This document shows positions 16,100 through 64,000 of a stretch of 64,000 nt of DNA, piece after piece. Every line of letters starts with the position of its first letter. The first letter of the stretch is position 1. The notes under the pieces were generated by a model. That model was not told where the DNA came from, made no database searches, and saw nothing but the letters and a program-made list of their open reading frames with translations. Both the position numbers and the translations under genes were made by a program. The DNA comes from Euglena gracilis (taxonomy: Eukaryota): the NCBI GenBank assembly GCA_039621445.1, contig CP154954.1:38611703-38675702 (forward strand), read 5' to 3'.

Positions 16100-18910
16100 G
16101 AAGACTTAAAGATATCACAAGGCGCCGAATTCTCTCGGCATCCAGCTCTCCTCTGATGACAAAGGTTTGCCAAACAATGCTGTCAGGGCATGATCTTTTT
16201 TTCTCTACTTCAGATCACTGACAAGAAATTGCTGAATTCAATCAAGCAGGAACGGCTGTCAGTATCTGAGGCGCTGTTGCAGATGTCGTCTCACAAAAGC
16301 GGAAGCATAAATTCTGAGACCTGTACACAGGTGGATTGACCATCGTGTTTGATTTCTGCTTCCTGTTGCTGTGCCTAGAAACTGCCCAGAAGGTTTTTTT
16401 TGTTTGTCTATCTGTTTTGTTTGCAACAAAATGGTAATCTGGTTCTGATTTACAAAGACTTGAATCATTTTTTTGGTGCCACATCTTTGGGGCGGGTTTG
16501 GGCCAGATGTGGTAGACATTTGTGCTGGCCACTTTTGGTCCAGCACATCTGGCCAGTTTCGGGCCAGAAATGGTGGCCAGTTTTGGGCCAGATGTGCTGG
16601 CAGTTTTGGGCCACAGGTCGTGGCAGTTTTGGGCCACAGAGGTCGTGGCCAGTTTTGGGCCAGAGGTCGTGGCTAATTTTCGGCCACAGGTGGTGGCACC
16701 GCCAGTTTTCTCAACACGCCCCCCCCCCTCACCCCCCCCACACAATAGGTCCCGTTGTGAACAAAAAAGTTAACCACTTTGACGCCAAAGCTAGTTCACA
16801 TGGGCAGAAGTGTGGATATGCCCAACACCAGGCACCGAGTACCACCTCCCCCCCCTAATTGACCCCCCCCCCTAATTGACTAATCGCCCCGGGGAAAATT
16901 TTTTCGACCCCCCCCCTAATTGACTACCCGGGGGGGATTCTATGCTGAAGCACCCCCTAATTGACGGTACCCCCCCTAATTGACCAACCCCCCCCCTAAT
17001 TGAACCCCCCCCCCCTAATTGACCAAAAGGGGGGTCCCGTGGAGAGGTCTGGATTCGGCTGTTGCGTGTGCCTCAACAACTTGCCCAGGAGCGGCTGTTG
17101 CATGTCCTTTGCAAAAAATCAAAATTGGGGTTTGATGATGTGCCAGACTCTGTGTGGTGGCATTTGGTGTGTAGAGGTGTGCCAGACTTTGTTAACATAA
17201 TTTTGTCGTACATTTTGCGTTTTGCCATGCCAGTGCTGGGCCACCTCTTTAGTTTTTGGCCATTTTTTGTCTTTACCACATCGTGGCAGTTTTTGGGGGG
17301 CCAGAGGGCTGGCCACTTTTGCCAGAGTCGTGCTATTTTTTGCCCACATGGTGGCACCCCCCCCTCACCCCCCCCCCACCCCTAGGCCGTGTCGGGAACA
17401 AAAGTTAACGCACTGCTCACATGGGCGGAGAAGTGGGTTTGGATATGCCCAACAACCCACCCCACCTCCCCCCCCTATCCCCCCCCCTAATTGACCGCCT
17501 ATTCGACCTCCCCCCCGACCCCCCCCCCTAATTGACTTACCCGGGGGGGATCCCCCCCTAATTCTCCACGGTCCCCCCCCCTAATTCACCCCCCCCAATT
17601 GACCCCCCCCCCCTAATTCCCCCCCACCCCATTCCCCCCAATGTTTGGAAAAAATTGGTTGAGGTGAAAACGCTCCACGGCCAAAAAAAATGCTCTAATG
17701 GCGTCGACGGAGGCTAGGCGCGCCGCTCGGGGGGGGGGGGGGGCCGGGACCCCCCTCCCTCCAGCCCCCCCCCCGCCCGTGGCCGCTCGCCCCCCCTGGA
17801 CCCCCCCCACTATGCCTAGCACAGCCAAGAAAAAAAATTTTCACCAAAAAAATTTTGGTGAAAAAATCGCGATTTTTTGAGGCCACAAAATGACCAAAAA
17901 ATGACCATTTTCGGACACAAAATGGCAAATTTGAGGGCCGCGCGCTCTGCGCGCGGCCAAAAAAAGTACTTTTTGGGTCAAAAATGGCCCAAAAATGGCA
18001 AAAAAATGACCACTTTTTGGACCCGAAAATCACCGATTTTAGGATGCGTTCCGCCCGCGCGGCCGCCCTCGGACCCCCCCCGCCCCCCCGCCCCCCCGCG
18101 CGGCCGCCCGCGCGGCCGCTCGCCCCCCCCCCCAGCAATCCTGATGACAAAAACCCCGTCAAAAACCCCCTGGAATTCTGACTGATAAATGTCCGTGAAA
18201 AACCCCTGACAAATGTCCTCGTTTTTGACGATGATTGCACTGCTGCTAGGAACTGGAAAAAAGCGCCCACCACGCCACACGCTGTGACATCCACCACCTC
18301 AGAAGGCACAGTCACATGGTGAGGTCGCGGCCCAGAGCTAAAGCTGCTGCTGCAACGGAGGAGAACAACGGAGGAGAACTTTTTCGGCAACCAAATTATG
18401 CAGTATGCAGTTGGATTTGTACTGTAGTTGCATCAACGACTTCCACTGATGACAAAGGTTTGCCGAACAGTTCTGTAAGGGAATGTACATTTTTCTCTGT
18501 TGCAGATCTCAATGGCAGGAAATTGCTGAAGTTTATCATGCTTGAAATGAACTTATTTGAAGGAGGTTGGTAATCTGGAGCTGAGCATGTCCCTGCTAAA
18601 CTGCTCCATTTGTTTTCATTACGGCCAACAACGTGTGTATGTTCTGGTTCCTGTTGCTGTTCCTGTTTGCTTTACAATGTCAAAATACTGGCCAGCTTTG
18701 GGCCAGATCTGCTACCCAGTTTTGGGCCACATGCTGGCCAGTTTTGGGCCAGATGTGCAGATGTGGTGGCTAGGTTTGGACAAGATGTGCTGGCCAGTTT
18801 CGGCCACATGTGCTGGCCAGTTTTGGGCCACATGTGCGGGCCAATTTTGGTCCAGATGTGGTGGCCAGTTTTGGGCCAGTTTTGGGCCACCTGTGCCAGC
18901 CAATTTTGAG
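16100..18910 (+). repeat. Dispersed repeat pair with ~20-bp GGCCAGTTTTGGGCCA minisatellite (16480-16710, 17190-17350, 18690-18910)
   Basis: Shared CTGATGACAAAGGTTTGCC block at ~16153 and ~18446, each followed by degenerate tandem units. Confidence 0.7.
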
Positions 18911-26524: not shown

Positions 26525-27795
26525 GGTACTTATCTGTTATCGTACGACGGACCCCCCCCCTTTCGGTTATGGTACGACACCCCATTTTTGGGTTGCTGGT
26601 CTCCCTGCACGCTGCAAGCAGTGCTGGGCATTGCACAGGAACCCCTGTCTTCCGGTCCTCACTCCTCCGGAGGCCACTATCCCGCTATGCAGGCCAGCAG
26701 CGCGTCGAACGGGTCAGTGTGTTTTACAGACTGGCGCCAGAGGAACTTTGCCAGGTAGCTGTCGAGTAACGTTCGCCGGGTGCCGCGGTGCACTTTGGGC
26801 CTGCACGGGTGCCCCGATTGGCCCGAGTGCACTGAAGTGTGGGGTTATATAAAGGAATAGGGTTAGGTGCGCGACTTCCACACCCCCCCCTTTCCCGGCT
26901 CGGGGAACCGGTGTGCATTGCGCCACTTGGCCAGGCCCCACACCCGCTCGATGAGCTGGGTGTGGGCTCCGGTCCGTGGGTCGATGAAATTATATGTGTG
27001 ATTCAGGTGGTTATACCCCGCGCGCCTGAGCTCCCGGGAGGAGTAGCCGGCCCAGCAGTCCGACATGACCGTGCTGCCCGGCGCGACGCGCGCCTTCAGG
27101 ACCCGCGTCAGCGTGCGGGCCGTGCGGTCGGGGACGGTGGTCATGAACATCTCCCGCGTTTCGCGGCAGATGCCGCCGAAAACCCACTGCGCCGGCAGGA
27201 TGCGGCCCTTGTTCCCCTTCCGCTTGGAGAACAGCGCCTCGTCCACCTCGACGACCCGACCCGGGCCGCCGATGCGGCTCAGCTGGCAGCTGTCCTCGAG
27301 GTCCTGTACCGCCACCTCGCGGAGGTACGAGCACCAGTCTGTGGTCCCCTCCACCCCAGGGCCCTGCCGTGGCGCCCCCCGTACGCCTCGGCAGGACCCT
27401 GCGGCGTGTGACATGTCCAACTCGTGCCGGGCCCAGCGGTGTGACACGTTGTCGTGCGCCCACTGGTACAGGAACTGGACCGCCCGGACGAAGTCGAGGC
27501 GCCCGAAGTCGAACCACGTGCCGAGCCGGACGCCGCGTGTGCGGCGGCAGGTGCGGTCGGGGCACCGCCACAGCACCTTCTGGCCGTAGGAGAGCACCAT
27601 CTCCGTCCCGCACGGGCACGTACGCGCCAGGTGCAGCACGCCATGCCGCTGAAGCAGCTCAACGGCCTCACGCTCAGAGCGCGGGAGCTCGAGGGAGCGC
27701 ATGGGGAGGGTCGGCACCCTGTGGAAACCACAAACCGGGGGTGTCGTACCATAACCGAAAGGGGGGGGTCCGTCGTACGATAACAGATAAGTACC
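26525..27795 (-). mobile_element. Merlin-superfamily (IS1595/ISXO2-like) DNA transposon, near full length
   Basis: ~58-bp terminal inverted repeats (TIRs) GGTACTTATCTGTTATCGTACGACGGACCCCCCCCCTTTCGGTTATGGTACGACACCCC; perfect 8-bp TSD TTTTATTG (26517-26524 and 27796-27803); encodes a DDE transposase. Confidence 0.95.
26659..27702 (-). CDS. Merlin/ISXO2-like DDE transposase, three coding segments (27702-27406, 27351-26917, 26796-26677), mildly decayed
   Basis: N-terminal Cys cluster (CPC...WRC...C), VVEVDEALFSKRK (D1), TVMSDCWAGY (D2), HTQLIERVW (E), and a separate C-terminal segment KVHRGTRRTLLDSYLAKFLWRQ...DPFDALLACI. A TAG five codons before the probable TGA, and an apparent 2-aa deletion in the HxxVNH motif, suggest decay. 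Confidence 0.88.
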
Positions 27796-35200: not shown

Positions 35201-38200
35201 GGAACAAAATTTCACAAATTTCATGAGAAAAATTACTTCCATGATGCATTTTCACAACGTGTTTTTGGATTCAAAACTTTCCCCAAAACAGAAAATTTTG
35301 CCAAATAATCCTGACTGGAACTTCGGCGATCCACATGGCGCTCAGGGAATTTCTTAAGCCGGAGGGTACCCTACCCCCCGGGGGGGGGGGTCCAGCCAGC
35401 CAGCAGCTCAAATCCAGCCAGCAGCCCAAATTCGGGCTGGGAGCCCCCCCCCCCCGGGGTCGAGTGAAATAAAGTCGGGTCCAGCCCGGCCGGAGGCCGG
35501 GCCAGCCGGCCGAAGGCCGGCCCAGCCGGCCGCAGGCCGGCCAGCCAACTGGGCTGTCCAGCTCACTTATCCCTGCATTTTTCCCCCTCATCACAGCCCC
35601 TCCATCACAGCCCCCCAGCCTTGATCTAGCTCCACCCATCAAAATGTCGAAAATGGCCAAAATGTGTTAGAAAATTTTGTTTTTCGTCGACCCAGCCCAG
35701 CCCAGCCCGCTCCAGCCCGGGACCCCCCCCCCTCCCCCCCCCCCCCCCCCCCGGGGGGGGGGGGTCCAGCCAGCAGCTCAAATCCAGCCAGCAGCCTTTT
35801 TGCCAGCCGGGGGCTGGACCCCCCCCCCCCGGGGGGTCCTTAAGAAATTCCCTGATGGCGCTCCCGGGGGCTAGGGGGAACAATATTTTGGCAGGTTAAT
35901 TGGGAGCAAGTTTGCACAGAAGGAGGAGAGGGTTATGGAATTAATTTTTTTGAAACATAACAATCACCGCTGCGTATGTGATCAGGGAATTTCTTAAGCC
36001 GGAGGGTACCCTACCCCCGGGGGGGGGGGGTCCAGCCAGCCAGCAGCTCAAATCCAGCCAGCAGCCCAAATTCGGGCTGGGAGCCCCCCCCCGGGGTCGA
36101 CTGAAATAAAGTCGGGTCCAGCCCGGCCTCCGGCCAGGCGGCCAGCCGGCCGAAGGCCGGGCCAGCCGGCCGCAGGCTGGCCAGCCAACTGGGCTTCCCA
36201 GCTCACCTATCCCTGCATTTTTTCCCCTCACCACAGTTTCCTACATCACAGCCCCAGCCTTGACCAAGCTCCATCCACCAAAATGTCGAAAATGGCAAAA
36301 ATGTGTTAGAAAATTTTGTTTTTCACCGACCCAGCCCAGCCCAGCCCTCTCCAGCCCCAGACCCCCCACCCCCGGGGGGTCCAGCCATCAGCTCAAATCC
36401 AGCCAGCAGCCTTTTTGCCAGCCGGAGGCTGGTCCCCCCCCCCCGGGGGTCGTTAAGAAATTCCCTGTATGTGATGTGACCGAAGATTGTTTTTTTTTTT
36501 GCTCCACCTCCCCCCTCCGGGGCCAGCCAGGATCGGCCAAAACTGGCCCACCAGCGCCAAAGACACTGGAAATTTGGGGGGGGGGGGTTGAGCCATTTTG
36601 GCCCAATGGTCAGCGACCCCCCGTCTTCGGAGGCTCTAAAAAAAACCTGTCAGTGTCTTGGTGGGGGGGGGGGGTCGGACGTTTTAAGCAATCCTGGTAT
36701 GCACACATGGCATAGAGTGGGCCCCAGGGTTGTGTGGGAAGCTCCACAGGCATGAGGTGGGTGGTAGGGGGGTGCTCACCCCAGGGGGGTAAGGTTGTGG
36801 GGGGGGGTCCCTCACCCCCCAGTTTTGGAGGGGGGTCCCCACCCCCCCCCTTGGGGCTCAAATTTTGCACTCAATGGTAAGAAGTTCCGGGAACCAAAAA
36901 CAGGAGATGGGAGCAGGTTTCTGCTTAAGGGATTGCAGTACCCCCCCGGGGGGGCTGGACTGCAGCTGGCCCAAATTTGGCTAGTGGGATTTCTAGCAGA
37001 CCCCCCCCCGGGGGGGTTCTGCCAGCAGGGCTAGCTAGTGGAAAAAATTTTCCAGTGACCGGCGCGAAGCGCCGGAAATTTTTTTGGGGGACCCCCAAAG
37101 ATGGCCAAAAGTGCCTGTTTTTGGCCATTTTTGGGAGTTTTTTGAAACAAAATCAGCCAAAAACCTATTAAAAATCTCATTTCCACCTCGGCGCGCAGCG
37201 CCGGAGGAAATTTTTTTCCAGTTGGGGGGACCCCCCCCCCCCGGGGGTCTAGCTAGGCCACCTCCACGTACACAGACAAAAGGGCCAGAGGCGAACAACA
37301 GCGCCAGGCCAGAAGAAGGGGTAAAAGGCACCCAAAAACAGCCACAGTGCACACAGGGTGTCTAGCTAGTCCATTTTTTCCAGTGTCTAGCCGATTGGCT
37401 GGCCAGTACCCCCCCCCCCTCCCGGGTCTTTAAGCAAAAGCCTGGATAGGAGAGGGGTCCCCCCTCCCCTCTGGCCACCTCGGGAACCGGCGGATTATCA
37501 CCATGATCCCGGCTCCGTTTGCGGAATTTTTTTTTTCAGTCGCGAGCGACTGGATTTCTAGTTTCCGAATCACCTCCGGTTGACCCGCAACTCCCCGCCA
37601 GGCCCGAGTTATTCACGCGCGAAGGGTCCAAACTGGGTAGGATTGCTCCCCCCCCTTCCGACTCTGCCATTTCGCCGGGGTCCAAAAATCGGTCAAAAAT
37701 TGATTTTTCGAAAGTATCTCGAGAAAACGTACATTATTTCCGGAAATTTCGGTCTGACGTACCCCCCATGGGGTCCCCCCCCTACCCCCATTTTGTTTTT
37801 GTTTTTGAGTCCCATTCCCCCACTCCCAGTCCCCCTCCCCGATGGTTTTTTTCGAAGCTGAGTGTGATTTTTCCCCCCCCCCCGTTTCCGGCCATTTTTT
37901 TTCGCCGGCGATTATCCCCTTTTCAGGGCCCCCCTTCCCCGCATCCCGCTGGCTTGTTTCGCCCACCCCGCCGGGACCCCCCCCCTTCCAACCCGTATTT
38001 CGGTCCCCCCGACTTTCCCGTCCCTTTCCCCTTTTTCCCAGGCCGCCCTCTACAGGGTTTCGATATACACGTATATTATGGTTTAGGTGGGGGGGGGTGT
38101 CCCCCCACCCCCCCCCTCCTTGCCCCCACCTGCAAGGGGGGTCCGGACCGACCCTCGGGGGGGTACCCGGGACCCCCCCCAAAAAGGGTCAATTTTTTCC

Positions 38201-39818
38201 TCCGGCGCTTTGCGCCGAAAATTTTTTGCATTTTTGGCCAATTTTTGCCCAAAAAGTGCCCAAAATGGCACTTTTGGTCGTTTTGGGGGGTCAAAAATTT
38301 TCGGTCACCCTGACCGCGCCACTGTTTAGGTGGGGGGGTGTCCCCCCACCCCCCCCCTCCTGGCCCGCAGGGTGTCCCCCCCACCCCCCCCTCCTCTCCT
38401 TATATCGAACCCTGGCCCTCTATCACCCCCCGTTCGCCATTGTTTCGGCGCGGTTTTGAGGCCCAAAACGGCCATTTGGGAGTGTTTTTTGGCCGTTTTT
38501 TTTTGGTCAAAAAGTCGATTTTTCAAAAATATATCCACAATGAAGCAAAATCAAAGGAAAAGTCCGGAGAGCAAAAATGAAGCCCTTGGATGTATTATTT
38601 TTCCCCCAACTCTTCGTGTAGCCCGAGTTACGGCCATTTTTCGGCCAATTTTGGCCCAATTCAGGGGCCATTTTGGGCTGTTTTCGGCGTCAAAAAAAAC
38701 GATGTTTTCAAAATATCTCGAAAATGAAGCAAAATCAAAGGAAATGTCCGGAGACCAAATTTGAAGCCGTTGGAACGCCATCCAACAGTATTTTGCTTTT
38801 TCTGCCGCTCTGGGGGGGCGGGGGGGGTCCAACCCCCCCTTTTCCCCAGGGGTAAGCTTCGCTCTTACTCTAAAGAGATAAAAGCTCAGATCAGGGATTT
38901 TTTTAAGTTTGGACCCCGGGGGGGGGAGGGGGAGGGGTAGGGTGGGTGGGTCCGCCGGACCCCCTCCCCCCCGGGGGGGGGGTCCCCCCGGAGGGGGGTG
39001 GGATATACTTTTCGGCGCCGCAGGCGCCGAAAAAAATTCTATTTTTAGCACTTTTCGCAATTTTTCGGCCATTTTTTGTGGGTCCCCCGGACCCCCCTCC
39101 CCCCCCGGGCCCCCCCCCCCCCAGGGGGGTGGGTGGGTGGGGGGGGGACCCCCCCTCCCCCCCCGTCTTAAAAAAACCCCTGGCTCAGATACCCCACATA
39201 CCCCCATCCCCGGTATGGGGGCCCCGGCTTGTATGGGAATCTCGGAGGGGGGACCCCCTTCCAAAACTAGGGCCCTGTTTTGGGTCAAAAAACCAATTTT
39301 TCCAAAATTTCTCATAAATGGTGGGGAATCAAAGGAAATGTCCGGAGACCTAACTTGAAGCCTTTAAAATGCCCTATCTAACAGTATTTTGATTACCCCG
39401 CAACTCCCCGCCTAGCCCGAGTTACGGCCATTTTTCGGCCATTTTTGGCCATTTTGTACAGTTTTGGCCTGTTTTGATTTGGCCTTTTTTTTGGCCTTTT
39501 TTTTGGGTGAAAAAGACGAAAAAAATTTTTACCCGTAACGATGTTTTTTGGACTCTTGGACACGGAAAACGTGTTTTTGCGCCGAAAATGAGTGAATTTT
39601 GGGCCAAAAAGTCGAAAAAACCAACAAAAGAGATAGGGGTGGTATGGGGGGGGTTAAAATCATTGAAAGTTACCGTAAATTGCAGGTGTGTAATTTGTAA
39701 TTCATAAATTATGCAAAATTTGCAATGCTAGTCTTTTCGGCCTTCCATCACATGCAAGTCAGCATTATTCAAAACCTGGTTTAATTGGTCCCCAGATTTT
39801 CCTGCAAAACGACAGATT

Positions 39819-39857
<39 letters not shown>

Positions 39858-42800
39858 TTATATATATATATATATATATAGATATATATTAGACACAGAT
39901 CAGGTATATTTTTTCCCCGGGGGGATCCAGGGGGGGGGTCGGAAACCAGGGGTTTTTTTAGTTGTGGACCCCCGGGGGGGGAGGGAGGGGGTCGGGAACC
40001 AGGGGTTTTTTTTAGTCGTGGACCCCCGGGGGGGGAGGGGGGGTAGGGTGGGTGGGTCCGGCCGAGCCCCCCCGGGGGGGGGGGCCCCCCGGAGGGGGTG
40101 GGATATACTTTTCGGCGCCAAAGGCACCGAAAAAGTGCTATTTTTAGCATTTTTCGCGATTTTTCGGCCATTTTTTGTGGGTCCCCTGGGACCCCCCGGT
40201 CTTAAAAAAAACCTCTGGCGGAAACCCCCCAGGCACCGGGACAGTTTAATGGGTCCCGCACAAAATGATGCACCGGAAAAAGTATCAACCAGATGCCATG
40301 CGGGTGTGCGGGGGTGTGGGGGGTATGGGTGGCCCACTTTCAGGGGGTGATGTGACCCTTTTTGAATTCCAATTCAAGGGTTCTTTTTCCATTGGTCTTG
40401 CAGAAAGATCTGTCCCAGAATTTTGTTTCGCGCATGGGTTTTTTGCAAAAATTGGTTTCAGTCCAACGATGAGAAGTGCGCAGTTCAGAGAGTCATTCCT
40501 CCCCTTCCACAGTATTTCAACAGCCTCGCGTACAACGCGGAGCAGAATGTGGACCTACGCAAGGCAGTGGTCCATTATGAGTCTTCAGGAGTCAATGGCC
40601 AAAAGAAGAAGAAGCGGGTTGTTCTCCCTCGTTTCTTTATGTACCTTTTTTGTCCCTTGCATTCTTTTTTTGGATTCCAGTGCAATACAGTCCAATCAGT
40701 GAACGAGGCGGACAATTCGTGATTGATTAATATCTGATGGATCACGTTTGTAGTGTGAGCATCGCTTGATTTATTGATTTATTTGCAATGATTATTGAAG
40801 TGAATGCTTTTGGATCCATTTGCAAATTGAGCTTAAAATGCTGCGATTTCAGGCATGTCTTTTTTTCTGATTTTTCTCTGCGTTTGTCAAAAGAAAGTTC
40901 ATTTTTCTGTGCATTTGCCCTGAAAGCCCCGACCTATCAACCTTCAGATCACATTTATCGACACCCGGGCGACTACAGACGTTGTATCAACGACATCTCC
41001 CGTGGTGGCAAACAGGCTGTCGTTGAGTTTAACCCATCATCAAAAACCTGAAGATATTGGATGTCTGTGAAAAGGTGGTGTGGAGAAGATTGATCATTTG
41101 GCACCAAATTTGTAATGAGAATTAGGGGCCGACATTTGGTGCCTAAAACGTGCGCACCCCTGGATTTATTGGGAGGGGGTTAGTGCATCCAACCTCGAGT
41201 GTGCAATGAGTGGATGGGGAATCATCAGAGGGAGGGACTCACGCATTTTCCTGCGTTTATTTTGTGTGTGTTTTTTTTGGAGATTTGTGGGTTTGGAAAT
41301 GATTTCCATTTCAACAAAATTTCATACCATATTCTCTTTTGACCCAAATTTTAGGCAATATTTTCATTGTATGTTTTTTTTTTGGTAGCACAATTGCTTC
41401 TTCAGCTTGAACATGTTCCCAAACTAACAAAAATCATGTTGGTTTTTTTTGTTTCATGTGGACCCAAAAGAAATGCGCAAAGTCAAGCTTTCGTTATTTA
41501 TTCAACGTCTTTGTGTCTTTTTTCTCCGCGTTTTTGCGTCGCACATTTCTCTCCAGGGCTGAATTGTTATTGCCAGGGCTGAATTGTTCTCAACCCAATG
41601 CCCCGTTGGAGCCTTTTTTGTTTGCCTTCAAGGCATGCACCCCGCACCCCCAGAAGACACCTCCTCCGTATGGAAAGAGGAATTCCACCCTCCAGGGATC
41701 ACAAAGAAAAAGCAGTCTTGCAGCAAAACCCCCGGAAAACGGCCGATCGTGTTCACCTGGCACGCCAATCATGGCCAAGCGGAATGTGGCCAATCCCCAT
41801 CCGTTGGTGACCAACTGGGAGGAAGTCCCACTCAGCCCATTGCTGGATCCTTTCTCCCGGAATCCAATGGAGAGAAATAAACGACAATGTGCTCAGGAGT
41901 GATGTAATGGTTGACAGTTTTTTTGTTGTTCTGCAGCCCCTTCAAGGACAGTGGTCCATCAATGTTTGTTCATTGCCATTCTGCGAACCCCCCCAGTTGT
42001 GTTGTACCCCCCCCCCTAGTCGTACGACCACCCCTCATTTATGACCACCCCCCGGTCACAGGTTGCAGGTCATGGGGGTGTTATGACCCCCCCCCGGTCA
42101 CAGGTTGCAGGTTGCGAAAAATTTAACCCCCAAAAATAAGTCCCCCCCCCCCTGGCCGGTCCGAGTAAAAATCCATGAAATGGACCCCCCCCCAAAATAA
42201 GGTCCCCCCTGCCGGCGCGAAGCGCCGGATTTTTGAAAAATGGGACATTTTGGGGGGGGTAAATCTGCCATTTTGGGACAGTTTTCACACACTTCTACGA
42301 CCGCCCCCTCATCTATGACCACCCCCCGGTCACAGGTTGCAGGTTATGGGGGTGTTATGACCCCCCCGGTCACAGGTTGCAGGAACCCGGTCATACGACT
42401 AGGGGGGGGGTATGAATGCCATAGCATTAACTCTGGCAATCGCAACACGTGGGTGTATTGAATGAAGATGTGGCACACCTTTCCCTTCTGCCCACCACAG
42501 TGCCCATTGTCCGTCTTCTGTTTTTACCCAGTGGAGTCTTTTGAGTCACAATGGTTTTGATGCGCTGTTAATTTTCTTCAGCGGGAGTCACCAAGAGACA
42601 GGCCTTACATAGTGAGGGGGATCAAAGTGGTGCCGCCACCCCCCCCCCCCGGAGTCGGGCCCTCACCGAAGGACACCTCCCCTCCCTACCAAAACTTTGG
42701 GGACAGCCACACAGGGATCTTTGTTCTTTGTTCTTTCACGATGCCGTCCAACCAAAGGCTTTTTCGAAAACCTGGGGACTGGGGGGGTTTGAACACCAGG

Positions 42801-48800: not shown

Positions 48801-51800
48801 TTGGGCATTTTTCCGATTTCAGTCCAGCTCGCCCCGGTTCGGGTCCAGCCGGGGCCTAGCCCCCCCCCCCCCCCCCCGGGGGGGGGCGGGCTAGCCAGCC
48901 CAAATTTCTAGCCAGCCCAAATTTCTAGCCCTAGCCCAGCACCCCCCCCCCGGGGTCCTTAAAGAGATGTATGGTTTGTGCTAAAAAACCCAACCCTGAA
49001 TTCCGAAGGCAAACCCTAATGCTGATGGGCACAGCCACAGCGTTTTGGGGGCCCCAGCGGCGGAGGCATAGGGCAACCCTTGGTCAGCTGAGGGAAAAGT
49101 GTAACCTGCCCCAAAAATAAGACCCCCCTGCCGATTTTCAGCAAAAATCCAAAAACTGCACCCCCCCAAATAAGCCCTCGAGATTTTTGGGGGAAAACCA
49201 AAAAAGGCCCCCAAAGCCGTGAAAATGCCCAAAATGGGTGATTTTTTTGACATTTTTTGATTTTTGCCCATGTTGCGTGTGTTAGAACTAGCATTTTTTG
49301 CTCATTACCAAAACTTGCCCTTTTTTGGACCTATTTTTGGACCCTCCCACGGGGAGCAATTGTATGGTCCTGTGTTATTTTTGGATTTTTCATGCATGTT
49401 AGATCAATTGAGGTTTTGGGGGGGTTTGCACAACCGCGAACAAAATACGGCGGAAAATCTTCATTGAGGTTTTGGGGGGGTTTGCACAACGGATGACATA
49501 TCCCATATTTTTGCAAACCTGTGTTGTCCTCATGTTTCACACGTTAAAATTGGAAAAACTCTTGTTTCTTCGTGTTAAATCTGTAACAAAACTTTCAACT
49601 TTAGCCTTAAATCCTGGTACAATTGCAAAAAAAAAGCCAACTGATTTTTGTCAAAAACACGGGGGGAATCTGGCTTTTTTTTGAAATTATTTATTTCATT
49701 TATGTTATGCATTTATTTATAATGCAGAATTATGCGGTAATGTGGAATCATACAGAATTATGTGAACAAACCAGTGTAAAAGTGAACAAAGCGGTCATTT
49801 TTTTTCGCCCAACGCTGGCAAAGCAAACCAAATTCAGGTGTATCAGGTGATTGGCCACAACCCGCACCTCTCACACTGATCCGGGCCAGGTGGGGGATCG
49901 TCAAGATGTCATTTGCGGGAGGGGATTTGACAACAAATCCATTCCAAGCCACAATACCACAAATATTGCAAAAGGTCCGATCTTGGCCAGTCTCCCCTTC
50001 AATCCTTTGATCCTGCAGGCGTACGGATCTGATGCAGGGGAGAGCGACGATGGGAAGAAAGGGTTGAAGAAACGGCGGCCTTCGCGCCCACGAGGTCCTG
50101 GCTGTGTTTGGTTTGTGTTTTGTGTTTTGCGTGATCACGGATTGGAAGCTTTTATTTTTCGGCCGGTGCTGATCCAAATATATTGGCTGCTTTGGTAGTG
50201 AAACCCGGGACACTGTCCACATCTTGGAAAAGTTGCCTTCGAGCTTTGAATGGCCATTTTAAAATGCTGCCCTCCCCCCCCCCCCCTTCCAGAGGCCCAG
50301 TGGTGAACCGTGGGGTTGTCGCCAGGCATTTGCTTAAGGGATTGCAGTACCCCCCCCCCCCGGGGGGGGGCTGGACTGCAGCTAGTCCAAATTTGGCTAG
50401 TGGGTTTTCTAGCAGACCCCCCGGGAGGGGGGGGTCTGCTAGCAGGGCTAGCTAGTGGAAAAAAATTTTCCAGTGACCGGCGCGAAGCGCCGAAAATTTT
50501 TTTGGGGACCCCCAAAAATGGCCAAAAATGCCCGTTTTTGCACATTTTTGGGAATTTTTGGAACAAAATCAGCCAAAAACCTGTTAAAAACCTCATTTTT
50601 CCTCTGGCGCACAGCGCCGGAGGAAAAAATTTTTTCTAGTCCGGGGGACCCACGGACCCCCCCCCCCCCCGGGGGGGAGGGGGGGTCTAGCTAGTCCACT
50701 TTTTCCAGTGTCTAGCCGATTGGCTAGCCAGTACCCCCCCCCTGGGGGTCCTTAAGCAAATGCCTGGTTGTCGCTGAAGCCAGAGGACACCCCATCCCAG
50801 GGGCTCCCCCATCGATGTGCTTTAAGTTTGTCCCAGCTGCCCAAAGGGCGGTTAGACGCAGCAGATGTCCTGCAGGTCTCTGGGTCATGCATTTATTGAG
50901 AACCCCCCCCCCCCGGTGGGGTAGTAGTTGACTCGTTGCTTGTCTGCAGATTCTACACCCACTGGTCGGCAACAGTCACCACAAGCCACTGCAGAATGTG
51001 CTTTTTTTGCGATGCCAGGCACCAGATTCCTGCTGGCACACATGAAAGGTGAGCAGGGGTTTTCTTAGACCCCCCCCCCGGGGTGGGGGGGTCCCACAGG
51101 CCGGCCGGAAAATCGTGCAAAAAAATGGTGCAGGTGGGGGGAGAGGGTCCGGCCGGCTGGGAGCTGGACTCGGCGTGTGCCCAGAAAAAAACCCCCCAAA
51201 AAGCCCAAATCTGCTCAGGGCCTCAGCGTCGCTTTGCTTTGGGTTGGCCTCAGGGTTCACATTTGTATATGAACCCCCCTGGGGAGCAGGGCTCCACTTA
51301 AAGAGCCAGAGCGGACCTGGGGGAGAGTTCCAGCCAGCCATGAGATTTCTTCTGGCCAGCATTTTTTTTCAGCCCAGGATCCCCCTCCCCTGGCGACGGA
51401 TTTTATTTTTTTGTTGTTTTTTTGTCTGGCCGCCCAAAGGAGTAATGGATTTTGGAAGGTATTTTGGTGGGCCAAGGGTTGGTTAGCAAGGAGTTGCTCC
51501 GCTCAAAGTTTAAGTCGTCTCACGCTGGGTTGCTTTTCAGGCCGTTTTGATGGAATTGGTGTGTCGGGTCCCAGTTCGACCCCGGCCAGGCCAGTTCCAG
51601 CCTGAGGACCCCGGGGAGGGGCCAGCCAGCAGCTTTCTTCCGGTCGGCTCACATTTTCCCGCCCTGAGCTGGCCGGCCGCCAAGCGGGGGGGCCGGCCTG
51701 GGGCCGAACCAGCGAGGCATTCTGCGGTGCCCGGTACCCCCCAGCCCGCTGCCCCCGGCGCTGCCCCGGTGGAGAGCCGGCTGATGAAACCCACCGCCAG

Positions 51801-54512: not shown

Positions 54513-55168
54513 ATTAAAGATTTTTTCAAGGCGCCTTGACAAAATAATGCAGGCTGCATTTGACTGCAACATTTCATCAATGAGGTTGCATCCCAGTGAA
54601 GAAGGCAGACAAGTGCGATGTCAGGTGCGAGCTCATCAAAGTCATTCCATTTCCTCCACCAGGGGGGCCGACCACCAGAGGACCCATCCTTGCATTAACC
54701 CCCCTGCAACGATCTTTGCCCCCTGCAACGTTATTTGGGCAGTACCCAAAACCATCAATGGACCGATTGCAAACGTTTCCAAAAGAAATTTGTTGACATA
54801 AGCTGTTCACAAACATTTATTGCATAATTTTAATGCACCATTTCATCAAATACCAGGGCATTGTGGCAGTTCGGATGATTCCTTGCGCCACCACCGCCTG
54901 ATTTCCCAAACAGATGCATGATTTCTCACCGGTTTTCCTTGCGAAGGGGGCAAAGGTATTTGGCCCGACCATTCTCGGCCTTCCCCCTGCCAAGTTGTTC
55001 GGGCACACAATGCTTTAGGGCAGTGCAAAGTTGTTTTGGAGAGGTTTAGGGGGAGGGGGCACGGACCCGCCCAGTGGCCTGGCCGTTTCCGCCTCCCGCG
55101 CCGTGTGTTGCCGCGGCCCCCTGTTTGCCGCAGGGCTCAACCTCGAGGGAGCCCTCCGTTCCCCCGCC

Positions 55169-57803
55169 ATGCCCGGCCGCCTGCTGCCAGCCATCACACA
55201 GCCCGAGGGCACCGCGGCCCCGGGTCGCTGGGCGCTGCTGGGGCCCCTGGGCCTTTGCCTGGTGGCCGGGCTGGTCGGCTCCGCCCTCCTGACCGGACAG
55301 CGCATGCCTCCCATCAGTGCTTTTCCAAAGAAAAAAGCCTCAAAAAACCTGTCCCCCACCCATGGAAAGCGCCACCTCCCTCTTTTTGTTGTACCTCCCC
55401 CCCCCCATGCCCAATGAACACCCTTGCCCAATGAACAGGGGGTGTTCGGACCGTCTAGATTGTCACCATATACCCTATCTACACAGAAACCGTACCCAAA
55501 GCCCAATGAACACCCCCCGTTCGGACCGTCTGGATTGTCACCTTAGTGTTCATTGGGCTTGGGGGGGGAGGTACCTCCCTCGCGTGTCAACATTTCAGCA
55601 CAATTCCTGGCATATTTGCATTTTTTTGTTTTTTGATCTGGCCTCATCACACCGAATGCTTTTCTCCTCCGTCTTGATGATTTGGCGGAAAAGTCAATTG
55701 GCACCAAGAGTCAATTGGCACCAATTGCAATGCTGCGCTTGTTGCACAATTTCATCCTGGAAAACAAAACAGACGAACAAGGCTGGTGGCCACTCCGGGG
55801 GCCGAACTCACACGTTCAACACCGCAGCGACACACTGATGCCGCCGACCGAGCACTTTGTTCGCGTGGCCCCTGTCACCCAACCCACGGCCGTGGTCGCC
55901 GCCGTCCCCCCTCGGCTGCGAGATGCGGTGGCCCAGGGACCAACAGCACTGGCGGGGTTTCTGAAGGACGCTGACGTGCCCACCGTCCAGTCTCAGGTTT
56001 TTTTGTCTGTGTTGGATGCGGTACATGTGCATTCATTAAACCTCTGCTGCCTGGCCCCCAGATTCTGGAGTAGGTGGGTTTGGGCATTCTGGGTTCTGGT
56101 GGGGGGGGATGTCTCTGCCCGTGGTCCAGATGCCCAAGCAGCCATTTACGTGTACCATTTATCATACCATTTGTTTGCCATTTATTTGTGCCATTTATCC
56201 GTGACTCACGGTTATTGGCCACAGACCCTCCTGGCCAACCCCTAGGGGAGTGAGACAGGAATTTTTCTTGGAGATACAGCCGAAATCTATGGTATGCGAT
56301 TTTTGGATAAGTTTGTGTTGTGTAGTTTTTGTTGACCCCCCCTCCACAAAGGGTTGGAGTGATGGACTGGATCTCAGAGAAGACTGGTCTTTGAAAGTGA
56401 AGAATGACCCTGTCCCCATTGATATGCCCCCCCCCCCAGACAAGAAGGGGGGCACAAACCACACCGCCAGTTTTTGTACCAAACCTTTTGGCACAGCCGT
56501 ATATGAACTGGGTGAGGATTGGTAATTTTCCATGGGCCAAAATCTACCTGCCAAAAAGTGCCACCAACCCCCGGGACCAGGTCACCTGGGTTCCCCACCC
56601 CCCAAAACCCCATTATCACTGGAACCACTGCTGGTTAACAACCCCGAATAGTGAAATTTTGGCAATTTTTCGGCATAAATCGGGGCGGGGGGGGGGGCGT
56701 GATTTTCAGGGCCAGGTTGCCTCAATGCCAGGAAACGGGGGGACCCCCCTAAGGTATCAAAAGCGCACGAAACCTTCTTCGGACCTGGACTGCCATTGCT
56801 TTGCCCTTGACTCAGCTGACCGCTGTCCCTTCTGTTCTTTTTTTTGCAGCACAGCGACTCGCCCCACGCGTTGGGCTCCTTTGCGATGGTGGCCCTCGGC
56901 AGTGCAGTGGCTTTCGTGTGGGGACAATGCCATCCGGAATGATGTCCCCGATTGTTGTCTTTCCCGCCGCCTCCCAAGGTTGGAAAGTGGTCATGCCAGC
57001 ACTTGCCATCATGCAATCAGGCTTTTGCTTAAGGGATTGCAGTACCCCCCCCCCCCGGGGGGGGGCTGGACTGCAGCTAGTCCAAATTTGGCCAGTGGGA
57101 TTTCTAGCAGACCCCCCCCGGGGGGGGTCTGCTAGCAGGGCTAGCTAGTGGAAATTTTTTTCCCAGTGACCGGCGCGAAGCGCCGAAATTTTTTTTTGGG
57201 ACCCCCAAAATGGCCAAAAATGCCCGTTTTTGGCCATTTTTGTGAATTTTTGGAACAAAATCAGCCAAAAACCTGTTAAAAACCTCATTTTTCCTCCGGC
57301 GCTGCGCGCCGGAGGAAAATTTTTTTTCCAGTCCGGGGGACCCCCGGACCCCCCCGGGGGGAGGGGGGTCTAGCTAGTCCACCTTTTCCAGTGTCTAGCC
57401 GATTGGCTAGCCAGTACCCCCCCCCGGGGTCCTTAAGCAAAAGCCTGCATGCAATGCAGGGCGTCCCCCCCCCCTGTGCGCCACAGGGCCGTTTGACACA
57501 GCTGGAGTTTTAATCTGCATGCTTGAATCACAGTGCTTCAAAATGAAACACAAAAGGTGTTCTGAAGTGCAAACAACACAAAAATTTTTGTGGTATGTTT
57601 ACTGACTGAAAGTCTAGTTTGGATGCGTGGCTGCCTTTCCAACATTTCCCGGTGGCATGGCGGTGATATCTCTTGGGACGCAAGCGACCTCAACCACTAC
57701 CCATGGCGATGGCCTCCGTCGGCGATGAAGGTGTGTGGTTTGACTTTCCATTTATTATTGTTTATTATTTCTATTTATTATTTATTATTTATTACTTGTT
57801 ATT

Positions 57804-57937: not shown

Positions 57938-60900
57938 CTTATTTATTATTTTTTCTTGTTGGAAAAGTCAGAGGAAACAAATTTGCCATTTTGGTTGTGA
58001 ATTCTGGACAACGTTTTCCAGTGGTTATGTCCCCACTCCCTCTTGATGCGTTTCTTTGGACCTCTTCCCCATTCTTTCCTCTGTTTCTCTGCCTGCCTCC
58101 GGCGTTGGCGTTCTGCAAACCTTCTGGCTCTCTCATCTTTTCTTCAGATGAAGGGCCGATGGCCGTGTGAACTTAGTGGGGGGAAGGAACCAGTCACCCA
58201 TCTGCCCCCTCAGGGTTTTTTTTAATTTGGAGACTTTGATTTTGATTTTTAATTTGGGGACTCACCCCCCCCCCTGGGGCGGGTGAGTCCCCCCCAAGGT
58301 AGTCAGCCAGATAGTCCCTCGCTCAGAGGCGGGGTTTTGGCTTTTTTTTGGCACAAGGTGCCGATCTTTTTGACCCCAAAATGGGTCCCCACACTGGCAG
58401 GGGGCACCCCCCTGCCCCTGAGTGGGTGGGGGAAGCCAGTTTGTAAAAAAATAAACACTGGCCCAACGCCCGTCTTTGCCAGAGAACCGCAGCGAGTGGG
58501 ACAAGCGGGTGTCGGTGCTGGACCAGGGAGCGCCAGGTGTGCTCCCCTCCGGGGGACGCCCTCGGGCGCTATTTGCGATGCGGCCGAACCAGAGAACCAC
58601 CCGATTGCCGACATCCCCACCTCGCAGAAGAGGCACCTTCAGGGGCGAACCTTGCAGATATTTCTTGCAGATATTCCCACATTTTCCACACAAGCAGTTT
58701 TGTTCATTTGTGGGATTTTTGTTTCCAACAGGATTCCGCTTTTAAATGGCAGGTATTTTGGACGCCCAAAAAAATCACTTCGGGGTTTGCTTCTCCCGGG
58801 CACTGCCCCTGGGGGGAGCACCTGTGCCCGCCCAGGCATTCTAGGGTACTCAAGCCCCCCCCCCCCGAGGTTGATCAAATTTGTTTAGCCTGTCATCGTC
58901 ACCGCAGCATTCCTTCCAAATAGCTGGAAACTGGCAAACTTGGGCATTGAAGTGGGATAAAAAGCGAGAAAGGAACAAAACCATGAAAATAATTGCGTGG
59001 TGTGGAAACGTTAAGTAATAATCCTATGTGGACTTGGAAAACAGCATTGTGGTTTTGGCATGCATTTGGGGGAATCAGAGCTCTGCGGTTGGCAGCGTGC
59101 AAAAATGTGGAGGAAACCATCGAGCTTCATCGACCACGGGAAAGTATCAGGACAAAGTCCAAAAGCAAGAGAATGCATGGCTTTGTATATTTGCCCTCTT
59201 GTTCCTCAGACACCCGCCATGTGTCGGAGGCAGATTTTGGGAATCTGCTGGTCAAGTTCGTCCAAGAACGTTTTGGGGAGGAGCAGACCAAGCGAATTGT
59301 TGACTCTTTCCGTCGGGTGTGTACTGTTACTCACTGCCCACCTTTTTTAAACACTCCGCATAATTCCTTTTTGTTTATTTGTCATATTTTTTGGTGGCAT
59401 TTAGTCAGAAATGGACATGGCTCAAATTATTATTATACATTTACAATAAATGATTTGCAGTAAATAATAATAATAATAAATGGCAAATAATCAGATATAT
59501 TCATTGCATGAACAGGGTGGTTCTCAGGCGGCCGGCTTCGCGTTTTCGTGTTGGTTTGTGCATTTGCGCAAATCAACACGGAAAAAAATTGGCAGTGTGA
59601 CTACGGGGAGTCGCAGGCATGACACAGTGACCAGCGAGTGGAAATAATGAGTAAGCTGCGTAAATTATGGCGGGTGTAACCCCAGGTATTTTGGCGAAAT
59701 ATGGTGTTTTTTGGGGGGGGTCTGGAAATGGGCTCCGCATCTCAAAACTCCCGGGACTTTCCTCCCCGGAATGACAAAAATGCAAAAAAAAAAAAAGAGG
59801 CAAAGGAATGGGACTTTTACCCCCTTCTTGCTCCTTTTATTTAGTGTTATGTGTTTGGTGTGTTTTGCAAAGTGCGGGGAGGGGATGCTGGGGCCTGTGG
59901 GTGTGGTGTGACCAAGCTGGCGGGAAGGACGTAGAGCAAGGAAGGTAAGTGCAGGGTATTTAGCAAGGGATGGGCAGGGGGGGAAGAAATGGGGTGCGCA
60001 GGACGGGCGTTCCCACACAACTTGTGTCCGGGATACCATTGCTTTTCACCTGTCCCACGGGGGTGCCTGACTGGTTTTTGTGAGTGACCCCCCTCCCCCC
60101 TGGGGGGGTCGCTCAGCAATGGTATGATCCGCACAACCAGTTTTGTCACAAAGAACCCGGAAGAAGAAGCACAACCTTTGAAGAGCAAAATTTATTAGTG
60201 GGTGTGAATGCACACACAAACAAATTTTGTTCGTGCGAGCTTTCACGCCCATGAACACAATTTTGTTCATGGACGCCTGTGAACTGACGCCGTCGATAAA
60301 CGGCATGACGAAGGGGCCGTGACAGCACGGCGCCAAAAACATATTTTGGGGGGTTTGTCACACCGTTTATCGACGACGTCAGTTCATGGGCGCCAAGGCG
60401 CTCACAAGTATTTGTTTGTGCGCGCATTTGCGCCCACAAACAAAATTTGTTCATGGATTCTGAATGGTCGACACATGGTGTGACAAAATACACAGCCATC
60501 AAATGCGGGTGAATCGCTGAAGCGCGCATCACGTTTTGTTCGTGAGCACCATGCCCCAAAATGAACCAGTTGCAGAAAATCACAAGGGGTCCATTTGCGC
60601 CTGAGCCCCACACGAACAATGTCCCTTCGTTGTTCTGTTTTCCACCAAGGGTCCGCCCGTTGTTTCGCCCCTGTTCCGCACCGTGCCCCCTTGTGTGCCA
60701 GACGGAGCGGGGCGAGGAGTTCCGCCAGCGGTTCGGCCCGCACCCGTTCATGGAGCAGATCGCCAGCTCATACATCGCAGGACTGGCCAGGACTCCGGAG
60801 AACCTGTTGTGTGGTTTAGACTGGCGGCGCCGCGGCCGACGGTTTTGTGCGCTGCGGCCAATGCCACACCGGAATTCATTTGCGCCACGACCGGTGCCGA

Positions 60901-63717
60901 AAAACTATTCTGTGTCGCAAGGCACCAATTGCATGCTCCACCTCCCCGGCACAGCCCTGGGGCTGACCACCAAACCGGACTGGCCCGCCCCCGCCCAGAC
61001 CTACCCCTGGGCCAAGGTGGTGCAGGAGGGGTGGCCGACCATCCGCGCCGAGCTTGAGGAGGTGTGCCTGGGTGCAGGGGGCGCGTGCCACCACGGCACT
61101 GGTTCCGTGATTCCATTGGGTTGGGCTTGGCAGGAGGAAAACTTGACCTGGACAAATTTGTGCAGTTAATACTGCCCAAATATGTTTGGATAGTTTCTAA
61201 AATTGCCCAAACTTGCTTTGTTTATTTCAAGCATGTGAAATGCCAAACACCAAATGCACACCCTCCAAATAATTTTGCTCCCCTGAGAAGTTGGTGGGCC
61301 GATCTCATTTGGGCAGTGTTTAAAACCATTGACAAACCAATTTTCCATTTTCAATAAGAGTGATTTTGTGTCAAATGCTCTACTTACCAAGTATTTTATC
61401 TGATTCGACATCTCTGTTCACTGGACGACAAAACATTGCATTTCGAACGATTTGTTTGTGTTTACCGCCTGGGCATTTTACAGAAATGTGCATCGTTTTT
61501 CATGTTGTTGCTTGTGGGGGGGGCACTGTCATTTGGACGGACAACCATGAGCATGAGTTATTGACCGATGAGGGGTCCCAGGTTCACTTCTGCACAAATT
61601 TTTCCTTTTCTTTTGTGCAAGCACCGTTATTTGCATTTTTTTTTAAGACAGTGCCTGCAGATGACACTTGGATGCCCCCCCCCCGTGTCCAACAAGCATC
61701 CATTGTCTGGACAGTTTTCCCTGTCCATTCCGTGTTTGCAGTGAATGGGTGGCTTTTGTCTGTATGGCCAAAATGGTATTTTTGAGGGTTTTTTTTAGGG
61801 TTTTACCTGAATTTTTTTTGACTGAATACCAGCTGGCTTTGAGCTGTTTGCTTTTTTCAAGTTTCTTCCGGTCGGCAGGTCGGCAGCCTGCTGCCCCGCC
61901 CCCCCCCCAAAGCGTGGGGTCCATTTTTCTGGCCAGCTGCCCCTAGTGTGGTTTTTCGACCCCCCCCCCCTCGCAGGTACCCTTGAGAAATTCTCTGAAT
62001 TTCGACCTTGCCATTGTTGAGAGGGACGGGGGTGTCGCCCACCCCCACCCCTTGCATCGCCCAGTGCCCCTGCCAAAACCGTTGTGTGTGTCGGTGTCGG
62101 TCGATTTTTGCACACAAAATAGAACTCCAGTTGGCCCCACTTTTCATTTGCGACTGTCGAATTTGCCCGCCAATTGCATGTTTTCAGTATCAACATCTGA
62201 ACAAAATTCATGTTACAATTAGTTGCACCATCAACAATTTTCCCCAGAGGGGGGAGTTTTCCCAAGTCCTGGCCAGAACTGAAGTAACCTGGGGAGCTTT
62301 TGAAGGAATTTAGATACAACAGCTTTTTTTGCAGTTTTTGTGTGTTTTTTTTGTCGCATTTTTCGAGGGTCCCCATTCAGCCCCCCCCCGGGTGTCCCCC
62401 CTTCGCCCATCCCCAGGCCATCCGCCTGGGGGACGAGGGGCTGAAGGCGAAGGGCTCAGTCAGCTGGATGGGGGCGCAGGGCGGCGCCGACTCCTACGGC
62501 ACTGAATGGAAGACCCTGGGCCTGTGCGACCGGGGCTACTGGGGCCATGCCGCATGGTGGCGTGGCGGCCACCCCGACCGCGCCGGTACCCCTTGGTCGG
62601 CTCACCTGGCCCTGTGGGGAAACGCTCACACGCCCGTCAAACTGGAAAAGGATTGGGGGTTCCCATTATGTTCCCCGGGACAGTTATTCGAGTGTGCCGG
62701 CCGGATTAGTGCTGAAGAGTGTGAAAAACGTGCGGATGTCACAAAACTTGCAATTTTTTGAATGAATCTGGATGGGTGGTCAGGGACCCCAAATGTGGTA
62801 CCCCTTGTCACGGTGGTCTGCGGGGGGGGGGGGGGCATGGGTCGACCCCACACGCGTGAGGGCTGTTGCGGAGCTTCTTTGCTGAGGGGGCGGTTGGAAC
62901 GAACCCGCTGGGGGCGCAACAAATTGGGGCTTGTGGCGGGAGGCCCACCCTGGGGGCCATCCGGCATGCCTTCGACGATGACAACACCCGGCTGTTCAAG
63001 AACACGTGCCGCATCCTTCGCAAATCGAGGTGCGCTGAGTGGGTTTGGTTGCTCCGGTACCACCCCGGAGTTGGATTGTTCTCGCGATGCCAAGGTGGAT
63101 CGTTTGCTGTTCTCTTGATTGAGAGTTTTCTGGTTTCGCTGCACATCTTCATTAAGATCTGTTCGTTGGCTGTGCCACTAGGTTGCCCCCCCCCCACCCC
63201 CGGAGAGAGAAGGGGACCCCCCACCCTTGAGGTGGTCTGGGCGGGTTGGTGTGCCTGGGCCTGGACCTCGGGGGGCGGGGGCTTGGGTATGGGTTTCGGC
63301 ACGAAGCGCCAGAAATTTTTTGGGAACGTTTTCAGACGGCCCAATGTTTTTTGGTGCCCCCCCCCCCCTTGGGGTGTCCTGCACTGGGCTTGGTGGGTTG
63401 CCTGGAACCCCCGGAGGGGCCGTAAAAAAAGGAAGTCCGATCAGGTCCCCAAACGTTCTGCAAGGCTGGGAAATGATGTTTCCGTCGGGGCAGTGGTGCG
63501 TTGAGGCATACGCTGGGCCACCAACGCCCCTGCCCCGCGCGGTGCGGGCTGCGCGGCCCAGGGCCCCCATCATGGAGTGCTTCTTCGCCAAGATGCCGGC
63601 GCACACGGCCATCAAGCCCCACTCCGACTACACCAATTTCGTCCTGACCTGCCACCTCGGCCTGAAGACCCCACCGAAGAGCCACATCGCCTGCGGGGAT
63701 GCCCGCCATGAGTGGAG
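55169..63717 (+). CDS. Aspartyl/asparaginyl beta-hydroxylase-family 2OG-Fe(II) dioxygenase with bipartite plastid-targeting-like presequence; 3' end beyond window
   Basis: Phase-consistent exons 55169-55308, 55846-55996, 56850-56922, 57665-57730, 59210-59316, 60702-60784, 60965-61061, 62417-62542, 62974-63029, 63562-63717. Motifs YIAGLTTKPDW...YPWAKVV...WPTIRAELEE, YGTEWKTLGLCDRGYWDDDN, and ECFFAKMPAHTAIKPHSDYTNFVLTCHLGL (HxD iron-binding motif typical of the Asp_Arg_Hydrox family). Confidence 0.85.
55309..55845 (+). other. Non-canonical hairpin intron (ends uncertain by 3 nt)
   Basis: CATCAGTG...CACTGATG stem; in-frame join QRMP|TEHF; no in-frame GT-AG solution seen at this junction. Confidence 0.6.
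56923..57664 (+). other. Non-canonical hairpin intron, 742 nt
   Basis: G|gacaATGCCA...TGGCATggcggt|GA; join AVAFVWG|YLLGRKR completes a transmembrane segment. Confidence 0.6.
57018..57447 (+). mobile_element. hAT-like MITE family A (inside a non-canonical intron)
   Basis: TIR CAGGCTTTTGCTTAAGG; perfect TSD CATGCAAT. Confidence 0.95.
57750..57950. repeat. (TTTA)n microsatellite
   Basis: Directly visible, intronic. Confidence 0.95.
60785..60964 (+). other. Non-canonical CAG...CTG hairpin intron, 180 nt
   Basis: T|ggcCAGGACT...AGCCCTGgggct|G; join YIAGL|TTKPDW. Confidence 0.8.
62543..62973 (+). other. Non-canonical CAT...ATG hairpin intron, 431 nt
   Basis: G|ggcCATGCCGCATGG...CCATCCGGCATGccttc|G; 11/12-bp stem; join DRGYW|DDDNTRLF. 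Confidence 0.85.
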
Positions 63718-64000
63718 GTGCGCGCACAATTTTGATGCTATCGTCCCAAGAATTTCAATTTATGGTCGAAGTTCGTCTTTATATTTATCCTGCAAGCTGT
63801 CAGTTGCCACCATGGTTGTTGAAATGAGAGAGAACTCCCAAGGCCCACCATGCAGGAACCGGAATGCAAACGTTTTTTTTTTGTGTGTGCGTTTTTTTCA
63901 TGCTTTTTGGGGTTTTTTTTGTTTTGTGTTCCTGCTTTGCTCGGAGTTTTTCCGACCCGCAAAAATTCTACCTTTTTGGTCCTGATATTTTCCCGAGACT

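Follow-up and report, generated by a model that had tools for sequence, protein, structure and literature searches.

Nonconventional (NC) introns of the euglenids Euglena gracilis and E. agilis have no GT-AG ends, and share a CAG at intron positions +4 to +6, a CTG at -8 to -6, pairing between CCAGG and CCTGG, pyrimidine|purine (Y|R) cuts followed by an exon with a purine first and C third, and junction repeats that render the intron 'slidable'; their host genes also carry conventional GTGYG...CAG introns (PMC3935182, PMC4770533, PMC11170887, PMC12501133). Knock-in mutagenesis in Euglena showed a CAG-CTG code with spacers of 3 and 5 nt (PMC12501133), the published consensus has CCAGG at +3 to +7 (PMC11170887), and the Y|R cuts and the purine and C of the next exon are described as features of the class (PMC4770533, PMC11282704). 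Here, we describe a 180-nt sequence that is a real intron, very probably of this euglenid type, at positions 60785-60964 of a 64,000-nt stretch of E. gracilis DNA (contig CP154954.1 of assembly GCA_039621445.1, positions 38,611,703 to 38,675,702), within a predicted aspartyl/asparaginyl beta-hydroxylase-like gene. The whole 64,000-nt stretch is called the window, and all positions are counted within it. The intron showed no essential difference from those described; it is an ordinary member of the class, one more instance among several hundred thousand known euglenid NC introns, of which roughly 466,000 come from E. agilis and roughly 16,000 from E. gracilis.

An origin from elements like MITEs (miniature transposable elements with inverted repeats) has already been proposed for NC introns (PMC3935182, PMC6221363, PMC12501133), and junction repeats resembling target-site duplications are likewise in print (PMC11282704); the origin of the class is still called unclear in the 2025 knock-in study (PMC12501133). 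Intron 4 of gapC in E. agilis strain ACOI 323 is a recently gained NC intron with direct junction repeats of eight nucleotides (PMC4770533). The intron at 60785-60964 shares a junction repeat of that length with it, but the gapC repeat is reported as complete and its intron as strain-specific, whereas here six of eight positions agree. Slidable junction repeats were reported for 84.4% of E. agilis introns (PMC12501133). By our own arithmetic, Y|R at both cuts would alone make about 75% of NC introns slidable, and the published counts give about 81% (378,539/466,382); slidability is therefore weak evidence. The idea of a duplication being used in the removal of an inserted transposon is shared with introners and introns derived from MITEs in Micromonas, Aureococcus, Amoebophrya, Polarella and Fritillaria, for which the intron is traced to a short DNA transposon that has inverted ends and makes a duplication (PMC11282704). 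Those, however, are multi-copy families and use a (modified) spliceosome, whereas the present intron was single-copy as far as seen, and its class is believed to do without the spliceosome.

RNA and homolog evidence for the intron

Four public runs (X1, X3, X20 and X21) were mapped against positions 57960-64000 of the window. X21 consists of raw RNA reads with the same species label, and X20 is a DNA-like run. A skip of 180 nt, written 60782->60963 with three letters fitting either side, was detected in X1, X3 and X21. It was present in one X1 contig (depth 612.9), in one X3 contig (depth 912.6) and in 97 X21 reads (28+32, plus 20+17 placed one base further on), and seven letters fit either side of the joint in the X21 reads. 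In the DNA-like X20, the intron was covered and no contig had the 180-nt skip. Inside the intron (60884-60898), X21 depth fell to 0 and 2 reads, compared with 57 and 62 in the exon at 60986. No joint through an internal GT or the AG near 60954 was found among the joints listed for the stretch, and the exons spliced at the RNA joints gave an open frame with no stops. The non-canonical intron postulated in the preliminary description of this DNA was thus recovered at the RNA level, the 60 codons not being retained.

The protein comparison was made with the read-through translation. A full HMMER search gave six matches, four of them family members (P0001-P0004), and in all four the two aligned stretches abut at the G-L-T site with no 60-residue insert; splicing thus restores the family-like peptide, as had been stated. 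The source of P0004 is labelled Euglena gracilis. P0002 is genomic, called on a 510,112-nt contig, and its equivalent 60-codon exon is uninterrupted; that exon is bounded by two sites (...LQ|TE... and ...EEV|...) that apparently correspond to the conventional intron positions on either side, at about 57% identity, which does not by itself establish orthology. The Asp_Arg_Hydrox domain (PF05118) was recognized in exon 63554-63718 of the window (E 4.5e-14), as well as in all three homologs of full length, and the intron site lies about 20 residues ahead of it. Pfam gave no family on the read-through open reading frame (ORF), and a homolog search by protein length gave nothing at E <= 0.001 among 44 near-length and 583 longer candidates. 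A metagenome scan yielded 15 loci with 26-37% identity; their matches start past the intron site (residues 216-224 onward), and they are therefore uninformative about an empty site.

In the frame of the gene the 180 nt are free of stops, and the stop-to-stop ORF 60546-61169 spans the intron unbroken. ORF callers read through it, as had been pointed out, and an annotation made in this way gains 60 false residues. A length divisible by three and an open frame would also suit a lineage-specific coding insert of 60 codons, or one cut by an internal cryptic GT...AG. The openness is unremarkable, however, because 60785-60964 is equally free of stops in other frames and on the opposite strand. Moreover, the RNA skips exactly 180 nt with no other joint listed in the stretch, and the insert is missing in four of four homologs. 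The two remaining matches of the search, P0005 and P0006 (E 5e-4 and 7e-4), do touch the intron translation, but are unrelated, internally repeated proteins. The 180-nt skip refutes both possibilities, to which we give practically no credence.

The intron has the spacing of the NC code, with a 3-nt spacer before CAG (60788-60790) and a 5-nt spacer after CTG (60957-60959). Since CTG is common to both junctions, the cut can be written anywhere in 60783-60786; the four possible registers read CT..GG, TG..GC, GG..CT and GC..TG, and none is GT-AG. We use the one that places CAG at +4 to +6 and CTG at -8 to -6. Both cuts are then T|G, in agreement with the Y|R junctions first described for this site, and the next exon begins with GAC, with a purine first and C third. 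In the terminal pairing test as published (10 nt + U7 + 10 nt), CCAGG/CCTGG of the intron gave -7.1 kcal/mol and the second, or sister, NC intron of the gene (62543-62973) gave -7.2, whereas the four conventional introns tested gave 0, -3.0, -2.0 and -4.5 kcal/mol. The published range for NC introns is -10 to -2 (PMC11170887). The sister intron has CAT/ATG in place of CAG/CTG, a two-sided change that preserves the pair, and keeps the 3-nt and 5-nt spacers. Over the first 12 positions its inverted ends agree at 11; its flanking 8-mers agree at four of eight, and it has a 16-nt junction repeat (14/16).

Some points weigh against the assignment to this class. The RNA nature of X1 and X3 is presumed, though their contigs cover exons only, and X20 is possibly from the same sample as the window DNA. 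In addition, the fold of the whole intron was no better than that of shuffled sequences (z = 0.29), which leaves the terminal stem alone as special. In that stem, CCAGG and CCTGG could pair and so bring both cuts together. By analogy with the published members of the class, the intron would be removed through the CAG-CTG code, probably independently of the spliceosome and with release of a circle. No back-joint of a circular RNA was listed by the mapping, which was aimed at linear joints and included no fit test for circles.

Similarity of the two junctions

The preliminary description had interpreted the intron as flanked by a degenerate 8-bp target-site duplication. The similarity itself is there: the 8 nt before CAG, GGACTGGC, and the 8 nt after CTG, GGGCTGAC, are identical at six of eight positions, as stated. 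Because the two spacers add up to 8 nt, the register of these 8-mers is also that of the two cut sites. Among all CAG...CTG pairs of the window lying 40-3000 nt apart, 742 of 101,946 (0.73%) reached at least 6/8; for CCAGG...CCTGG pairs, the proportion reaching 6/8 was 14 of 1,078 (1.3%). When the published junction preferences were imposed as well (Y|R for the two cuts, C as the eighth base of either flank, and G after CTG), 6/8 was reached by 9 of 132 pairs (6.8%). Four of the six matches (L6, L8, R1 and R5) fall at positions preferred by the code, and the free positions match at two of four. The 6/8 match is thus real and only marginally above chance; it mostly reflects the junction preferences of the code together with chance, and alone does not demonstrate a target-site duplication. 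Of the earlier interpretation, the similarity stood, and as proof of a duplication it is weak.

A duplication would be expected if an element with CAG...CTG ends had inserted into GGACTGAC and duplicated 8 bp, with the intronic part of each copy later drifting by one base. NC splicing, by taking out 3 nt, the element and 5 nt, would then eliminate the element together with one of the duplicated copies. The 6/8 flanks, with both mismatches in intronic bases, and the sum of the spacers (3 + 5 = 8) speak for such an event. Against it, besides the conditional null and the two of four free positions, no more than 8 of 15 positions agree between the inverted ends, a value reached by 17.5% of the CAG...CTG pairs of the window (null P >= 8 = 0.175), and pairing beyond CAGG was no better than chance. 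Further copies of the 172-nt core, for which a search had been suggested, were found neither in the window nor among ten MITE copies of the window compared with it: self-BLAST of 57960-64000 against the 64-kb window gave only an inverted repeat within a conventional intron (60183-60452), and the core had no BLAST match to the ten copies. The X20 DNA word depth of the intron was like that of its flanks (59.5 vs 47.2 and 50.5). The sister NC intron, moreover, has flanks matching at only 4/8, and the present intron was chosen post hoc from at least two candidates. The intron's own features do not show a decayed insertion.

The junction similarity also continues into what would be the element. In the cut-site register, the best segment was 14/20 over -5 to +14, running through the CAG motif (p about 0.009-0.015 in two scorings). 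This would suit an origin free of transposons, in which filler DNA was added at double-strand-break repair, or a local duplication of about 20 nt later acquired CAG/CTG, and the junction similarity is microhomology or a longer repeat that decayed. The seven letters fitting either side of the joint in X21 reads and the 16-nt junction repeat of the sister intron (14/16) also fit this possibility, and break repair has been proposed for NC intron gain (PMC4770533). On the other hand, three scorings were tried, and under the stricter mismatch penalty the best segment was 8/10 (p about 0.10). A gapped comparison of the flanks gave p = 0.37, and the similarity of the core to the neighbouring 400 nt, which bears on a local duplication, was no greater than that of shuffled sequences. 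Such an origin appears unlikely to us.

One 9-mer, GGACTGGCC, has just two exact copies in the 64 kb, both strands considered, at 60780-60788 and 60977-60985. The first is at the 5' junction and the second lies 13 nt into the next exon. This pair cannot be a duplication because conserved codons separate the copies, and it is a warning about coincidences picked out after the fact.

MITE-like elements of the window and the origin of the intron

The search of CAG...CTG pairs with flanks matching at 7-8 of 8 positions revealed MITE-like elements in the window, at least 11 in number, whose ends are CAG(G)...(C)CTG (Table 1). Their inverted repeats match at 12-15 of 15 positions; lengths are 271-531 bp for ten of the elements and 2,334 bp for the remaining one. 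Six of the duplications are perfect and five are 7/8, so that 83 of 88 positions are identical. Four sequence families were distinguished when 10 of the 11 were compared. Together, the elements account for 6,490 of the 64,000 bases (~10%). The one nearest to the intron (57018-57447) lies 5' of the likely exon 57667-57728 of the gene; the mapped RNA starts at 57960, and the 11 elements lie outside it. In a register control with all 83 CAG...CTG pairs whose inverted ends match at >=12/15, mostly low-complexity G/C runs, the flanks matched at 245 of 664 positions at offset 0, whereas shifting the register by +/-1 to 3 gave 165-190. Nine of the 11 duplications have a purine at position 6, which the code demands for the base that opens the exon. 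None of the 11 is spanned by a convincing coding ORF; neither an exonic location nor a role as an intron is therefore demonstrable for any of them, and Pfam gave no match on the ORFs scanned at these elements.

The window elements combine 8-bp duplications, short inverted ends, no coding capacity and several copies, as is characteristic of hAT-like MITEs. The hAT-type MITEs and the Ds-derived introns of maize have an 8-bp duplication and ends like CAGGG. The window elements share with them the 8-bp duplications and the CAGG(G) ends; in contrast, no hAT transposase was found in the window, where the sole transposase domain seen is Merlin/IS1595-like and belongs to an element with GG ends. Assignment of the elements to the hAT superfamily is a guess. 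In the literature searched, whose coverage left out figures and most supplements, no Euglena elements with CAG...CTG ends and 8-bp duplications were named, and in the same incomplete coverage there was no statement that 3 + 5 equals the duplication length.

These elements bear on the insertion considered above. Elements with CAGG...CCTG ends and 8-bp duplications abound beside the intron, the register control peaks at offset 0, and the genomic P0002 has the equivalent exon uninterrupted. Eight-nucleotide repeats at a strain-specific intron (PMC4770533) and repeats like target-site duplications at other NC introns (PMC11282704) are in print. Against this stand the points given for the intron itself, including the lack of similarity to the ten MITE copies compared. 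The uninterrupted exon of P0002 and the abundant matching MITEs keep a transposon insertion alive. For this particular intron, we regard an inserted element as plausible, though less likely than not.

A more general proposal is that the NC-intron code is the footprint of one type of transposon, with CAGG...CCTG ends and a duplication of 8 bp. Cutting 3 nt ahead of CAG and 5 nt beyond CTG would erase such an element from the RNA plus exactly one copy of its duplication, and the message would be restored exactly because 3 + 5 = 8, the duplication length. The junction preferences would then reflect the same target bases, present in two copies through the duplication (Y|R at each cut; C at +3 of the intron and +3 of the exon). 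The intron at 60785-60964 would be an old, decayed example, and the 11 MITE-like copies of the window would be the living source. We entertain this proposal tentatively, as somewhat short of evenly balanced. It gains concrete support from the MITE-like elements, since one window holds an NC intron with 3-nt and 5-nt spacers beside elements whose ends and duplication length that geometry would erase, and the hypothesis of a MITE origin is thereby sharply testable with existing genome and transcriptome data.

Other features of the gene and its surroundings

The six GT-AG introns of the gene have GTGYG starts and C-rich tracts at their ends, both of which were reported for conventional introns of E. 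gracilis (PMC11170887). The window is, by inference, nuclear euglenid DNA. The coordinates of the features are collected in Table 1.

Table 1. Positions of the intron, its junction elements, the remaining introns of the host gene and the MITE-like elements (numbered within the window)
Feature	Position	Strand	Remarks
Nonconventional intron	60785-60964	+	180 nt; register with CAG at +4 to +6 and CTG at -8 to -6
Left 8-mer GGACTGGC	60780-60787	+	5 exonic nt, then the 3-nt 5' spacer of the intron
CCAGG, 5' arm of terminal stem	60787-60791	+	contains the CAG motif
CCTGG, 3' arm of terminal stem	60956-60960	+	contains the CTG motif; 5-bp pairing
Right 8-mer GGGCTGAC	60960-60967	+	5-nt 3' spacer of the intron, then 3 nt that open the next exon
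Exon, 5' half	60702-60784	+	RNA joints; tblastn to P0001-P0004; preceded by conventional intron 59317-60701
Exon, 3' half	60965-61061	+	followed by conventional GT-AG intron 61062-62416
Conventional GT-AG intron	ends 58480		RNA joints
Conventional GT-AG intron	58537-59209		RNA joints
Conventional GT-AG intron	59317-60701		RNA joints
Conventional GT-AG intron	61062-62416		RNA joints
Nonconventional (sister) intron	62543-62973	+	431 nt; RNA joints, 56+49 X21 reads
Conventional GT-AG intron	63030-63561		RNA joints
Intron with GT start	63719		RNA joints
MITE-like element	1647-2041		duplication 7/8
MITE-like element	11516-11950		duplication 7/8
MITE-like element	15912-18245		duplication 7/8; 2,334 bp
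MITE-like element	35343-35854		duplication 8/8
MITE-like element	35983-36467		duplication 8/8
MITE-like element	36914-37444		duplication 7/8
MITE-like element	38053-38414		duplication 8/8; inverted repeat with indel
MITE-like element	38892-39182		duplication 8/8
MITE-like element	39947-40217		duplication 7/8
MITE-like element	50323-50766		duplication 8/8
MITE-like element	57018-57447	.	CAGG...CCTG ends; inverted repeat 15/15; perfect 8-bp duplication CATGCAAT

Upstream of the mapped introns, 55019-55305 and 57667-57728 are likely 5' exons of the beta-hydroxylase-like gene. They are suggested by a weak match to P0001 (residues 33-104) and by loose ends of RNA that match 57701-57728 exactly. Similar L-L-x-G-x-R peptides occur on both sides, and the junction (55.3-57.67 kb) is not fixed by sequence alone.

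Two contigs departed from the joints of Table 1. In X1, a 106-nt contig at full exon depth (833) starts at 62952, 22 nt upstream of the acceptor of the sister NC intron; an alternative acceptor or a difference between strains may account for it. At 63241-63718, a 686-nt contig of X3 with a depth of 555 starts within the conventional intron 63030-63561 and enters the next exon, X3 depth being absent over 62808-63211; possible causes are a retained intron or, in that run, an internal start.

Sequence variation was also observed. A variant DNA contig within the 180-nt intron, with differences at 60884, 60893 and 60898, indicates that more than one haplotype carries the intron. Exonic differences at 58500, 59259, 59271, 60986, 62458, 62503 and 62537 were found in about one-third (or about two-thirds) of the X21 reads, indicating that several alleles or strains are expressed.

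The X20 DNA word depth reached 17,507 at 59778-59979, 24,562 at 60384-60585 and 134,112 at 62606-62807, against about 20-60 in neighbouring sequence; these are high-copy repeats within introns, one of them inside the second NC intron. Finally, a Merlin-like DNA transposon was located at 26525-27795. Its 38-nt inverted ends start with GG and are 97% complementary, its 8-bp duplication, TTTTATTG, is perfect, and one of its ORFs encodes a DDE_Tnp_IS1595 domain (E 5e-10); it fits the Merlin families with an 8-bp duplication reported for E. gracilis (PMC8101967).

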